Positions 3,220 through 6,798 of a stretch of 64,000 bases of DNA are shown piece by piece. This DNA is from Escherichia phage UGJNEcP1. The stretch lies in sequence record OV754623, one strand, 5' to 3'. Made by a program: the position numbers and the translations under genes. The notes below the pieces were generated by a model. The model made no database searches. It saw nothing but the letters and a program-made list of their open reading frames with translations, and was not told the origin of the DNA. The first letter of the stretch is position 1, and each line of letters opens with the position of its first letter.

Positions 3220-4221
3220 TTATTTCAGTAAAGTTACTTCAGAGATTTCCTCCCAACCATCTTTATCAGTTGAAATAAAATCTGCTACATAAAGAGCCGT
3301 ACGTAATGATACATTGCGAAGACGAGATACGTTAGCCTTCATCCAGGACAATGCTTTATACGTTTCTGCATCCGTCAGACCACGTTTCTGCATCATGTCA
3401 GTAGATAATATTACATCTTCAACTCGAACCATAATCTCTTCATTAGAGTGTACTCCAAGATCGAGATACACTGAACGAGATACTAAAGCTTGAAGGTGTG
3501 GAGCAAGTTTAGAACCGCGTTCTAACTCTTTATCGATATCAACGTTTGTAATGAAAACGATAGTACCTTCAAACTCAAATTCTTTATCAATACCCTTATC
3601 CTCGAGATAAGATGACGCAGTGCTCCAACAAACTTTGCGTTTATCTCCGGTATCTAATGCTGCTTTAAGAAGGTTCAGGATGTCCATATCTGAGAATACG
3701 TCAACGTCATCGATTAAGAGAACGCTGTCTGCATCACGGTTGAGCCAAAGTTGTTCGTAAAGGCCAATGCCAGAGATTTTACCATTAATGCTTTTGTATT
3801 TGATGAAACCATTATCATTAGCATTATTAAGTGCTTTATCCAGAGAATACGTCTTACCAATACCAGCTGCACCTGAAATAATGAGTGAACGAATTTTGCC
3901 ATCGATAATGCCATTCGTCATCATGTTCATTACTTTAAAGCGTTTGTTGATACGAGTTTTCATATCTTCAGTGCTTTCAACAACTGCAACCGGTGATGTC
4001 TCAACTCCTTCCATTACGATGTCTGATTTGAAGACCCATACTCCACGTTCAGAACCATCAATCATAACGAAAATTTTACCATCACCTAAGTGGGAACATT
4101 CAGGATTAAGCTTTGCTGGGAACCAGGTCTTTGTGGCGACATAAGAACCAGAGATTTCGTTATTACGATAGATACCTTTTTTGATTTGAACGTTGAACAT
4201 TTTATTCTCCAATTTACTCAT
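3220..4221 (-). CDS. P-loop NTPase (Walker A GAAGIGKT, Walker B VLLIDDVD), AAA-like
   Basis: Walker A and B motifs read directly from the translation; promoter 4230-4267 upstream. Confidence 0.6.
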   Translation of the reverse strand: MSKLENKMFNVQIKKGIYRNNEISGSYVATKTWFPAKLNPECSHLGDGKIFVMIDGSERGVWVFKSDIVMEGVETSPVAVVESTEDMKTRINKRFKVMNMMTNGIIDGKIRSLIISGAAGIGKTYSLDKALNNANDNGFIKYKSINGKISGIGLYEQLWLNRDADSVLLIDDVDVFSDMDILNLLKAALDTGDKRKVCWSTASSYLEDKGIDKEFEFEGTIVFITNVDIDKELERGSKLAPHLQALVSRSVYLDLGVHSNEEIMVRVEDVILSTDMMQKRGLTDAETYKALSWMKANVSRLRNVSLRTALYVADFISTDKDGWEEISEVTLLK

Positions 4222-4229
4222 TTCGTTTC

Positions 4230-4267
4230 GATAGGTCTATAATAACATATCCTAAAAGCATGTACAC
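4230..4267 (-). promoter_or_regulatory. PeSL-type early promoter (variant -35)
   Basis: gataggtctataataacat... cassette shared with other copies. Confidence 0.5.
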
Positions 4268-4280
4268 TACTTTTTAAAAA

Positions 4281-4314
4281 TATTTTAACCCCCTAAAGGG
4301 ACCCGAAGGTCCCC
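4281..4314 (-). terminator. hairpin terminator (GGGACC-TTCG-GGTCCC)
   Basis: GC stem-loop downstream of 4319..4585; related copy at 22835-22858. Confidence 0.45.
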
Positions 4315-4318
4315 ACAT

Positions 4319-4585
4319 TTACTTATCGCACTTAGCAACATAATTAGGCATATCACAGAATACGGAGCGAGTAACTACTCGGCCCTTTGACCATGCTTCA
4401 GTTGCTTGTCCGGCCGTGCTATTAATATAGCTTGATTTAATGTTCTCAATACCCTGAGAATGTGATGCATTTACCGAACCATTGGAAGGCCCGGAAGACT
4501 GGTTACCACCATCTCCTGCACCTGTGTTAGCACCAACAGAGAATGCCATCATTACTGCGAATAAACCAATTACTAATTTTTTCAT
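4319..4585 (-). CDS. small secreted protein (88 aa, N-terminal signal peptide, C-terminal Cys pair)
   Basis: MKKLVIGLFAVMMAFSVGA hydrophobic leader; followed by hairpin terminator. Confidence 0.55.
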   Translation of the reverse strand: MKKLVIGLFAVMMAFSVGANTGAGDGGNQSSGPSNGSVNASHSQGIENIKSSYINSTAGQATEAWSKGRVVTRSVFCDMPNYVAKCDK

Positions 4586-4617
4586 ATTTACCTCAAGTTA
4601 AGGGGTTATTTATCTAC

Positions 4618-5607
4618 TTATTTATAGTAAGAATTATGATTTTCGAGATAGACTTGTTCAAGGAAGTCATCCCAGAAACTCATATCTACTTTTTGTTGCA
4701 TACCGTTCTTGGCAGCTTGTTCTGACGCATGTTCAACTTGGACAACGATATCTTCTAGGAATTCTTGTACAGTTTTAAACGTATGTTTACCAAGCTTAAC
4801 ATTGAGAATAAATGGAGCATCCTGAAGTGGGTAAACCAGGTCGCCGGTTTTGTAAATTTCCAATAATTGAAGTCCACCACGACATGCATGACTCAATGCT
4901 TTCCAGTCAATACCTTCGTTGGCTTCTGCCTTACGAGCACGTTCGCCATAGTTCTCTTCTAGTTTAACCAGGATGGCATTAAACTCTTTATTGGTTAACG
5001 TGTCTTGGAATTTACGGTCTAACAGATTATAGAATGTTTGCTTACCTGTTTTCTCGTTTTCGGTTTCAACCCATGAAGCAAATTCACCTACAGGCAGAAC
5101 ATTCTTCATATGTGATAAACGAATTACTGCACCGTTATCAAAGTATTGTCCCCATTCATTAGAACGTTTAAGGGCTTGACGAAGAACAGCCAGTCGAGAA
5201 CCCTTGACACCGTATTTAGAAGCTTGCTTACGGACATACCCTAAATAAGATTTCATGTTAGTGGTATAGAAACGAGACCTGTTATCTTGAATATACTTCC
5301 ATACATCAGGCAAATCAGATTTAACTACTAGACTTGGTGGAGTGTGAAGCATATCTAATGCGACGGTTTCACCATCTGCAGCTAGTTTAAAGAAATATTT
5401 GAGACTATACAACTCGTGGTCCACGTCGTCTTTTGTGTTCTTAGAAGATGTGTTATTCGTATTCTTGCTCATGTGTTCTTTAACGTTACCGGTCAAGATA
5501 TCACGAGCATGAGGGACATAAATTTCTTTAAAATCGACGTCAGATTCAGGAGTAGACGTTCCATAAAGGTGGCTACCAAAGTAGCCTTTCATAATTGTTT
5601 TCATCAT
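4618..5607 (-). CDS. predicted nucleotidyltransferase (pol-beta superfamily-like GS...D.D motif)
   Basis: N-terminal GSHLYGTSTPESDVDF matches the GS-x(9-13)-D-x-D nucleotidyltransferase signature. Confidence 0.55.
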   Translation of the reverse strand: MMKTIMKGYFGSHLYGTSTPESDVDFKEIYVPHARDILTGNVKEHMSKNTNNTSSKNTKDDVDHELYSLKYFFKLAADGETVALDMLHTPPSLVVKSDLPDVWKYIQDNRSRFYTTNMKSYLGYVRKQASKYGVKGSRLAVLRQALKRSNEWGQYFDNGAVIRLSHMKNVLPVGEFASWVETENEKTGKQTFYNLLDRKFQDTLTNKEFNAILVKLEENYGERARKAEANEGIDWKALSHACRGGLQLLEIYKTGDLVYPLQDAPFILNVKLGKHTFKTVQEFLEDIVVQVEHASEQAAKNGMQQKVDMSFWDDFLEQVYLENHNSYYK

Positions 5608-6077
5608 TTAGCCTTATATTCAAGAGTAGGACAGACTTTTTCTTTACGAGCTTTAAGGTATTCACCTATTAATGATTTCTTACGTTCAATAGGCTCAAGT
5701 CCATTTTTAATTCGTTCTTGGTTTTGTGCAATGAGCTCAATTTCTTTATAATATTTTCTGTCGTTATATTTGTCTAACAACCAAGACGGACCAATCACCA
5801 ACCCGGTAGCAATAAAAGCCATGACTGCTACCATTAAAATGCCTACACCAATTGAAGCTGGAACTAATGTCCATAGACTGCTAAAAACAAAGAATCTAGT
5901 TAAAATTTCCTGGCCAATGATTGTGACTGCTGCTAAAATCGCAAATCCAATAATTGAAGCAGCCAATACCGGGATTAACGTTTTCCAAAAATAAGCACAC
6001 AACGTTTTCGGACGATTCCATGTACTATTGAACGCGGCATAAATTTTAAAGTGCCAAGAGTTTTCATTGATAATCAT
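5604..6077 (-). CDS. multi-pass membrane protein (157 aa)
   Basis: Several hydrophobic helices; ATGA-type overlap with downstream nucleotidyltransferase gene. Confidence 0.55.
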   Translation of the reverse strand: MIINENSWHFKIYAAFNSTWNRPKTLCAYFWKTLIPVLAASIIGFAILAAVTIIGQEILTRFFVFSSLWTLVPASIGVGILMVAVMAFIATGLVIGPSWLLDKYNDRKYYKEIELIAQNQERIKNGLEPIERKKSLIGEYLKARKEKVCPTLEYKAK

Positions 6078-6086
6078 AATAATTCC

Positions 6087-6617
6087 TTATTTCAAAGTCG
6101 GGATAATAGAATCGAGATAAGCTTTAAGAGCAACTGCTTCATCTTTGTCTAATGTAATGATATGTTGACGAAGGTCGTCAATTTGGCGAATAACTACAAC
6201 ATCGCCGTCTTCATAAGAAGGATTAACGCTCAGGACTGTTGTATGGTCAGGGTTGTCCTGATTTGTAATAAAAGCATTACGACATTTAGCCCATTGAAGT
6301 TTGGCCTTTTTAGCTGTTTCAGATTCCATGAATTCTTTCACTTTAGTGACGAATGTTTTCCAATTATTAATAGAAAAACATTCGTCTTCTGTTTCGATAT
6401 TAACCCCACTATAAAGTCCGTGATAAAAACGAACTTGAAGGACTTCATCAATGTTAATTACAGATGCATGGCCTGGTGGATTGAGTTTCAAAATCTTGTC
6501 CAGTTCCATAGGAAGAATAGTAATAGCATCATCTTCTTGCGTCAGAACGTAAGCATAACCGCGTTTTTCAATACATAAATCACCAAACAATTCAGTTGTT
6601 TCAATTACAGTTTTCAT
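6087..6617 (-). CDS. hypothetical protein (~176 aa)
   Basis: Track ORF begins with TTG; first ATG at 6615-6617 (MKTVIETT) taken as start. Confidence 0.55.
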   Translation of the reverse strand: MKTVIETTELFGDLCIEKRGYAYVLTQEDDAITILPMELDKILKLNPPGHASVINIDEVLQVRFYHGLYSGVNIETEDECFSINNWKTFVTKVKEFMESETAKKAKLQWAKCRNAFITNQDNPDHTTVLSVNPSYEDGDVVVIRQIDDLRQHIITLDKDEAVALKAYLDSIIPTLK

Positions 6618-6618
6618 A

Positions 6619-6798
6619 TTATTCACCAATTAAAGTTTCAACAAAATTCACCAAAGCATTCTGGCAAGCGTCAACCTGATTTTCATAAAAGTCTCCGTTA
6701 TCATTTACCGCATTATAAGCTACATCATTCAAATCTGAATCGGCTTCACGTAAGTCACGGATAAGGTCCATCAATTTATTAGCTTGTTCACGGGTCAT
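6619..6798 (-). CDS. small hypothetical protein (59 aa), below the 60-aa ORF-track cutoff
   Basis: ATG overlapping the upstream stop (ATGA); acidic helical peptide MTREQANKLMDLIRDLREADSDL... Confidence 0.4.
   Translation of the reverse strand: MTREQANKLMDLIRDLREADSDLNDVAYNAVNDNGDFYENQVDACQNALVNFVETLIGE

Follow-up and report, generated by a model that had tools for sequence, protein, structure and literature searches.

A Mosigvirus ortholog of T4 nrdC.11 is an RlaP-family nucleotidyltransferase with a membrane-protein gene as a facultative neighbour

The window analysed here is a 64,000-nucleotide (nt) stretch of the genome of Escherichia phage UGJNEcP1 (sequence record OV754623). Positions 4319-6077 hold three consecutive open reading frames (ORFs) on the minus strand, which encode, in 5' to 3' order, a 157-residue membrane protein, a 329-residue nucleotidyltransferase (NTase) and an 88-residue secreted protein (Table 1). 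The region is 100% identical to its counterpart in Escherichia phage UGJNEcP2, a Mosigvirus (RB69 group) of the Tevenvirinae. All three ORFs are real genes rather than chance frames, because each matches a phrog (membrane protein, phrog_944, 5.8e-53; NTase, phrog_388, 1.4e-125; 88-residue protein, phrog_2243, 1e-37) and has protein-level relatives in phage records, numbering 1204, 1567 and 102, respectively. An earlier note on this DNA had read the NTase and its membrane partner, followed by the secreted peptide, as a nucleotide-signalling or nucleotide-modifying module of unknown role. The ORF list confirms the three frames, their positions and their strand, and the interpretation as a whole is partly supported: the fold was right, and the module and the "unknown" role were wrong.

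In Mosigvirus, the 329-residue gene is the counterpart by orthology of T4 nrdC.11, and it belongs to the RlaP family (PF10127) with a conserved active site. Its product shares 78% identity over the full length with T4 NrdC.11 (NP_049709), which, like phrog_388, is annotated "nucleotidyltransferase", and the gene holds the position equivalent to that of nrdC.11 on the T4 map, between nrdC.10 and mobD/mobD.1. The Pfam RlaP match scores 48.4 bits against a gathering score of 23 (E = 1.3e-12) and covers residues 7-138; the homologs among the matches listed all carry a precomputed PF10127 assignment. An exhaustive search returned 3160 cluster representatives that match the NTase at E ≤ 1e-3, mostly over the full length. 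T4 NrdC.11 itself has been explicitly counted in the RlaP family, in cluster 5 (PMC12776372). A role is on record for the family: RNA repair was predicted as its function in 2016, and biochemical characterisation followed in 2025 (PMC12776372, PMC7824862).

Conservation within the family was read from alignments of 55 and 74 diverse members. The GS...DxD signature, GSHLYGTSTPESDVDF, occupies NTase residues 11-26, and G11, S12, G16, S22, D23 and D25 are invariant in both alignments. D61, D63 and D85 are also invariant among the 74 sequences, any of the three being a candidate third carboxylate ligand. A further invariant motif, D234-W-K236...S239-H240-A-x-R243 (DWKxxSHAxR), lies in the C-terminal part. 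The AlphaFold2 (AF2) model built on the 74-sequence alignment reached a predicted local distance difference test (pLDDT) score of 88.5 and superseded a single-sequence model that was all-helix at a pLDDT of 42.5. It comprises an N-terminal α/β NTase core, a small β insert and a C-terminal helical domain of ~200 residues that starts at about residue 100 and harbours the invariant K236, H240 and R243. The significant PDB fold neighbours of the model are all Pol-β NTases. Model and conserved motif together thus bear out the nucleotidyltransferase fold with a GS...DxD signature that had been proposed, and the invariant residues indicate an enzyme that is presumably catalytically active.

The NTase is most likely not a nucleotide-signalling enzyme. 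Profile searches against the CD-NTase and MNT families had been suggested, and both are negative: no PADLOC cyclase profile matches at E ≤ 0.1, no SMODS or CD-NTase Pfam match is present, and the MntA profile (NF047752) reaches 12.9 bits against a cut-off of 60. The MntA match spans the GS loop only, and the protein measures 329 residues against ~100-140 for MntA. The top PDB fold matches of the model include no cGAS, DncV or CdnE, and the neighbouring ORFs contain no HEPN Pfam match. Searches of NCBIfam and PADLOC gave no significant match for any of the three proteins, and nothing meaningful came out of PDB searches, by sequence and by profile, for the NTase, the membrane-protein family or the 88-residue protein. 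Many GenBank and UniRef records name the NTase "thioredoxin", apparently carried over from the gene name nrdC.11, and one record calls it a "putative HNH homing endonuclease". The naming of NrdC.11-type NTases as thioredoxins is a widespread misannotation.

Across the junction of the membrane gene and the NTase, the minus strand reads GCTAAATGATGAAAACA, in which the TGA stop of the membrane gene (5606-5604) shares an ATGA with the first ATG of the NTase (5607-5605). The GenBank annotation starts the NTase at the second in-frame ATG (5604-5602), which yields 328 residues and a 1-nt overlap. The ATGA overlap reported earlier is therefore present in the sequence, but it is nothing special: of the 31 gene junctions annotated in the surrounding 14 kb, 13 overlap by 1-11 nt. 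Such ATGA junctions are commonplace in the UGJNEcP1 genome, and this one says little. At the other junction, 32 nt lie between the NTase stop and the start of the 88-residue ORF, which has its own GAGG Shine-Dalgarno sequence and therefore independent translation initiation.

Table 1. Features of the three-gene region on the minus strand of the UGJNEcP1 window
Feature	Coordinates	Strand	Basis
157-residue inner-membrane protein, phrog_944	5604..6077	-	
ATGA start/stop overlap, membrane gene/NTase	5604..5607	-	direct sequence reading
329-residue Pol-β-fold nucleotidyltransferase, T4 NrdC.11 ortholog, RlaP family	4618..5607	-	
GAGG Shine-Dalgarno, 88-residue gene	4591..4594	-	direct sequence reading
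88-residue predicted secreted protein (Sec signal peptide), lineage-specific accessory gene	4319..4585	-	
GGGACC-UUCG-GGUCCC hairpin, a few nt past the stop codon of the 88-residue gene	4297..4314	-	fold

The three genes are not one machine and not a conserved trio. We collected 79 loci with relatives of the NTase and searched their ORFs with iterated hidden Markov models. A membrane-protein homolog lies within 4 kb upstream in 48 loci and is absent from that range in the remaining 31. The two genes are immediate neighbours in only 12 of the 79 (Mosig-, Tequatro- and Dhaka-like phages), with a -4 overlap in 10 of these pairs and overlaps of 1 and 34 nt in the other two. In T4-like phages of the Klebsiella, Enterobacter, Cronobacter and Citrobacter types (in most of those of the Klebsiella/Enterobacter type), one or two unrelated soluble ORFs separate the membrane gene from the NTase, whose start then shares an ATGA with one of these intervening ORFs. 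In T4 and RB9, the place of the membrane gene upstream of the NTase is taken by the homing endonuclease gene mobD, which the literature lists as an insertion between nrdC.11 and mobD.1. No homolog of the membrane family was found in the 44-62 kb and 100-150 kb stretches of T4, the only ones checked. Seen from the other partner, in 75 loci centred on the membrane-protein family, the NTase lies within 3.5 kb of the membrane gene in 27 and is missing from that range in 48. Homologs of the 88-residue protein occur in 2 of the 79 NTase loci.

The facultative pairing, the presence of mobD in T4 and the commonness of gene overlaps speak against a three-gene module, and with it against both the membrane partner and the secreted peptide as fixed parts of one. 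Since T4 lacks the membrane gene at its nrdC.11 locus, the membrane protein is dispensable for the NTase and is at most a facultative accessory of it. The NTase start is also overlapped by other genes. In six RB43/RB16-like loci (L046, L047, L051, L052, L055 and L070), an ORF ending at about 4004-4007 overlaps it, and these ORFs appear by eye to form one conserved family. The L046 copy, the sole one scanned, matches Phage_ProQ_C_like (PF24203, 1.2e-13), an RNA-chaperone-related domain that is here translationally coupled to RlaP.

The 157-residue protein had been described as a multi-transmembrane protein, an acceptable description. Hydropathy places hydrophobic blocks at ~29-60 and 62-102 between basic N- and C-termini, a pattern that most likely corresponds to two transmembrane (TM) helices with both ends cytoplasmic. 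The family is recognised by SWHxxL...LCxYFW near the N-terminus and YIKAKKxKxCPxIEF near the C-terminus, separated by a hydrophobic core that varies, and C27, Y29, K147 and C149 are invariant in the family alignment. The family has no Pfam, NCBIfam or PDB match. A relation to the T4 "predicted membrane protein" NrdC.7, which would make the gene a relocated nrdC.7, was considered and rejected (BLASTP E = 0.15 over 15 residues). Members are also present in ICP1 and Pakpunavirus, which are not related to T4.

The 88-residue protein begins with MKK, followed by a 16-residue hydrophobic core and the cleavage motif SVGA|N, features of a typical Sec signal peptide in agreement with the earlier description. 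Beyond the signal peptide comes a linker rich in G, S and N, and the C-terminal segment contains two Cys residues; no Pfam or PDB match was found. The phage records that contain it are mostly Mosigvirus, and the gene is a lineage-specific insert unrelated to the NTase. In other T4-like lineages, the slot downstream of the NTase holds at least four unrelated small hydrophobic proteins, among them a 78-93-residue two-TM family, often with an ATGA overlap. Such small hydrophobic ORFs are found in L010-L045 and L081 (~5008-5450, locus coordinates), L037/L075, L043/L048 and L044/L049/L050/L053. Hydrophobic ORFs make up 22-29% of those next to the NTase against a background of 14%, a ~2-fold enrichment that is phylogenetically confounded. 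As evidence for a membrane-linked mechanism, this enrichment was weak and was dropped.

Past the 88-residue gene, the UUCG hairpin has a folding energy of -13.9 kcal/mol (z = -1.2 against shuffles, not significantly more stable) and is overlapped by a terminator-like site; it is a probable transcript end or stabiliser. Within 4239-4314 on the minus strand, which includes the hairpin, a MotA-box-like ATGCTTTTA and a TATTAT -10 element come after it and upstream of the NrdC.10-like gene. At the level of consensus only, these elements suggest a transcript boundary and a middle promoter. Promoter-like matches in the region number 18 against 20.7 in shuffled sequence, an absence of excess, and were given no weight.

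The flanks follow the T4-like gene order. Upstream, across a 9-nt spacer from the membrane gene, lies a MobD.1/y05I-like putative transcription factor (6087-6629, minus strand; PF24449 and PF24448), which keeps this place in many T4-like loci. Downstream lies an NrdC.10-like P-loop (AAA-type) ATPase (3220-4221, minus strand; phrog_1250). Its weak matches are to AAA_22, AAA_16, nSTAND3 and HTH_37, and in 37 of the 79 loci it lies no more than 4 kb from the NTase.

What the NTase does is best approached through its family. RlaPs have been predicted to replace nucleotides lost from cleaved RNAs ahead of ligation, and in jumbo phages their distribution parallels that of RNA ligases (PMC7824862). 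Two Pseudomonas members, from P. fluorescens and P. aeruginosa, were characterised in a 2025 preprint: they add 1 or 2 nucleoside monophosphates (NMPs) or their deoxy forms (dNMPs) onto an RNA 3'-OH, take neither DNA nor protein as a substrate, show a preference for a nicked tRNA mimic's 5' half and for Mn2+, and partially rescue aminoacylation of a tRNA without one anticodon-loop nucleotide (PMC12776372). PfRlaP has a positively charged RNA-binding cleft, and RlaP has been proposed as an antidote to nucleotide-excising ribotoxins such as RloC (PMC12776372). T4 survives deletion of the nrdC.11-mobD.3 segment (PMC9825161), which fits the expectation for a conditional counter-defence gene. The genome studied here encodes both Pnkp and Rnl1, as does that of T4. 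T4 Pnkp yields a 3'-OH and Rnl1 joins a 3'-OH to a 5'-P, and this tRNA repair pathway counters the PrrC anticodon nuclease. In a related metagenomic phage, the order Rnl2 - Rnl1 - membrane protein - Thy1 - ... - AAA_33 kinase - RlaP puts Rnl2, Rnl1 and the AAA_33 kinase within 3.5 kb of the NTase gene, and in locus L067 an AAA_33 kinase gene overlaps the NTase start.

The NTase most likely restores nucleotides on cleaved tRNA before Pnkp/Rnl1-type repair completes and would be a non-essential counter-defence gene of the early region; we give this reading slightly better than an even chance. Phage Pnkp would strip the 2',3'-cyclic phosphate and leave the 3'-OH that RlaP requires. By analogy with the Pseudomonas RlaPs, the NTase would then add one or two NMPs, template-free, to the 3'-OH of the broken RNA, above all where the anticodon loop of a tRNA has been cut and a 5' half is left. 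The added nucleotide would replace one that RloC-type anticodon nucleases of the host had removed. Rnl1, a 5'-P/3'-OH ligase, would finally seal the tRNA. Orthology, family membership, the conserved active site, the fold and the distribution and synteny counts are established by the data, whereas the RNA substrate, the link to Pnkp/Rnl1 and any role of the membrane protein are inferred.

Several observations weigh against this assignment. RlaP-family biochemistry covers the Pseudomonas enzymes, and the phage clade forms a sequence-similarity cluster apart from these characterised RlaPs, so its specificity could differ. The PF10127 match is confined to the N-terminal half of the NTase (profile positions 23-145 of 249). 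In the record, the gene lies ~85 kb from pseT and rnlA, which encode Pnkp and Rnl1, and outside the T4-like phages its neighbours are mixed, including helicase, primase, DNA polymerase, dNMP kinase and phosphoribosyl pyrophosphate (PRPP) synthetase genes. The best solved-structure neighbour of the model is HalB, a DNA-synthesising enzyme. In a rival reading, the target is something other than RNA ends: the NTase could AMPylate or NMPylate a host protein, in the manner of DrrA/GlnE or of MntA acting on a HEPN RNase toxin, or modify a small molecule, as kanamycin nucleotidyltransferase does. This is improbable, given that the sequence profile places the NTase in RlaP and outside those families, that the characterised RlaPs left protein and DNA unlabelled (PMC12776372), and that the conserved basic K236, H240 and R243 fit the RNA-binding cleft described for PfRlaP.

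Another rival is a Hailong-like or other signalling pair, in which the NTase would make an oligo- or cyclic nucleotide that gates or controls the membrane protein, or that imitates a signal of the host and so disables a membrane effector. The NTase profile has no sequence similarity to HalB, the membrane-family profile finds neither HalA nor any PDB chain at E ≤ 10, and PADLOC is without a match. The NTase further possesses the extra helical domain and the RlaP profile match, and co-occurrence is not obligatory, as mobD in T4 and the unpaired loci (31 of 79 and 48 of 75) demonstrate. Such a pair is highly improbable. In a last rival reading, the membrane protein has no functional tie to the NTase or to RNA repair and is a pure neighbour, placed there by an inherited T4-like gene order and by small membrane genes accumulating in hyperplastic early regions. 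In many lineages the membrane gene and the NTase are kept apart by unrelated ORFs, T4 has mobD in this place, hydrophobic ORFs are only ~2-fold enriched beside the NTase, and gene overlaps are common, all of which favour mere proximity; so does the lack of any RNA-repair gene in ICP1 and several other membrane-gene contexts. Against it stands the behaviour of the membrane family outside T4-like synteny, where it repeatedly adjoins RNA-repair enzymes of different families, and we regard an absence of any tie as somewhat unlikely.

This recurrence takes several forms in the 48 loci without an NTase nearby. The Pakpunavirus membrane gene has as neighbours an Rnl1-type ligase, after which comes an AAA_33 kinase, and, on the upstream side, a metallophosphoesterase. 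A PF09414/PHA02142 RNA ligase stands beside it in four T4-like loci of Aeromonas phages, whose RlaP is located elsewhere in the genome. A Pnkp-type HAD phosphatase (HAD_PNKP) is a further neighbour, and a HAD_SAK_2 "Swiss-army-knife RNA repair" phosphatase is directly upstream in three loci. Rnl2-type ligases occur two genes away, and AAA_33 kinases are often near. Five RNA-repair families (RlaP, Rnl1-type ligase, PF09414 ligase, HAD_PNKP and HAD_SAK_2) are found directly beside the membrane gene in unrelated phages; the loci concerned are the window itself (5604-6077), L084, L085/L086, L091/L093/L120/L128, L132, L133, L140, L153/L157/L158 and L165/L166. Among 142 neighbour representatives, HAD_SAK_2, RNA_ligase, DHFR_1 and GmrSD_N tie for the top Pfam count with three members each. 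An independent sample, obtained through exact-protein look-ups, has RlaP near the membrane gene in four of seven cases, among them the metagenomic Rnl2 - Rnl1 cluster described above. Five membrane-family loci of another phage group (L117, L121, L163, L164 and L167) share a downstream conserved 292-317-residue protein without a Pfam match, and in L163 and L167 a GmrSD_N protein is encoded upstream. Loci with GmrSD_N and a 305-residue protein as flanks are, like ICP1, among the contexts in which no RNA-repair neighbour appears.

The counts carry no phylogenetic correction, and a functional link of the membrane family with RNA repair is a lead and not a result, ranging from unlikely to tentatively possible; the membrane protein may be an accessory loosely linked to that pathway. 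The stronger proposal is rather unlikely: a widespread two-TM family with its SWHxxL...LCxYFW and KxKxCPxIEF motifs in the cytoplasm would serve phage RNA-repair modules (RlaP, Rnl1, Rnl2-type ligases and Pnkp-type kinase/phosphatase) as their dedicated accessory, and the NrdC.11 pairing would be one instance. Possible roles of the membrane protein are to tether or activate repair enzymes at the inner membrane, or to sense or block membrane-translocated tRNase toxins. Its recurrent placement makes the family a specific candidate for a component still missing from RNA-repair pathways. No description of this recurrent RNA-repair neighbourhood was found in the literature searched, and it is the sole part of the analysis that goes beyond that literature. 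The NTase is nothing categorically new, being a named T4-group gene of a family whose activity was recently described, with a predicted function in the phage. The repair of tRNA in response to anticodon nucleases has its classic model in the T-even phages, and NrdC.11 bears on the phage answer to nucleotide-excising ribotoxins.

Compared with T4 NrdC.11, the NTase of UGJNEcP1 is an ortholog that shares the position between an NrdC.10-like ATPase and a MobD.1/y05I-like gene, the strand and the early region, whereas T4 has the HNH homing endonuclease mobD upstream in place of the membrane gene and no 88-residue gene between nrdC.11 and nrdC.10. With the Pseudomonas RlaPs it shares PF10127, the three-carboxylate Pol-β active site and, in the AF2 model, the two-domain layout of NTase core and helical domain. 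It differs from them in belonging to a separate sequence cluster with a Pfam match in the N-terminal half only, and in lying outside an RtcB/RtcA operon; the ligase presumed to work with it is Rnl1, a 5'-P ligase whose gene lies elsewhere in the genome. Hailong HalA-HalB shows no sequence relationship, has other sizes and domains, and stands in a bacterial-defence context rather than a phage one, with a pairing that in the phages is not obligatory. The ANT(4') kanamycin nucleotidyltransferase, 3c18-type NTases and MNT-HEPN systems act on small molecules or proteins, and the NTase falls outside their profiles. The T4 Pnkp-Rnl1 pathway is present with both enzymes in the same phage group, and its chemistry is compatible with an RlaP step; the part of NrdC.11 in it is one that we infer, and in Tevenvirinae the genes concerned do not form a cluster.

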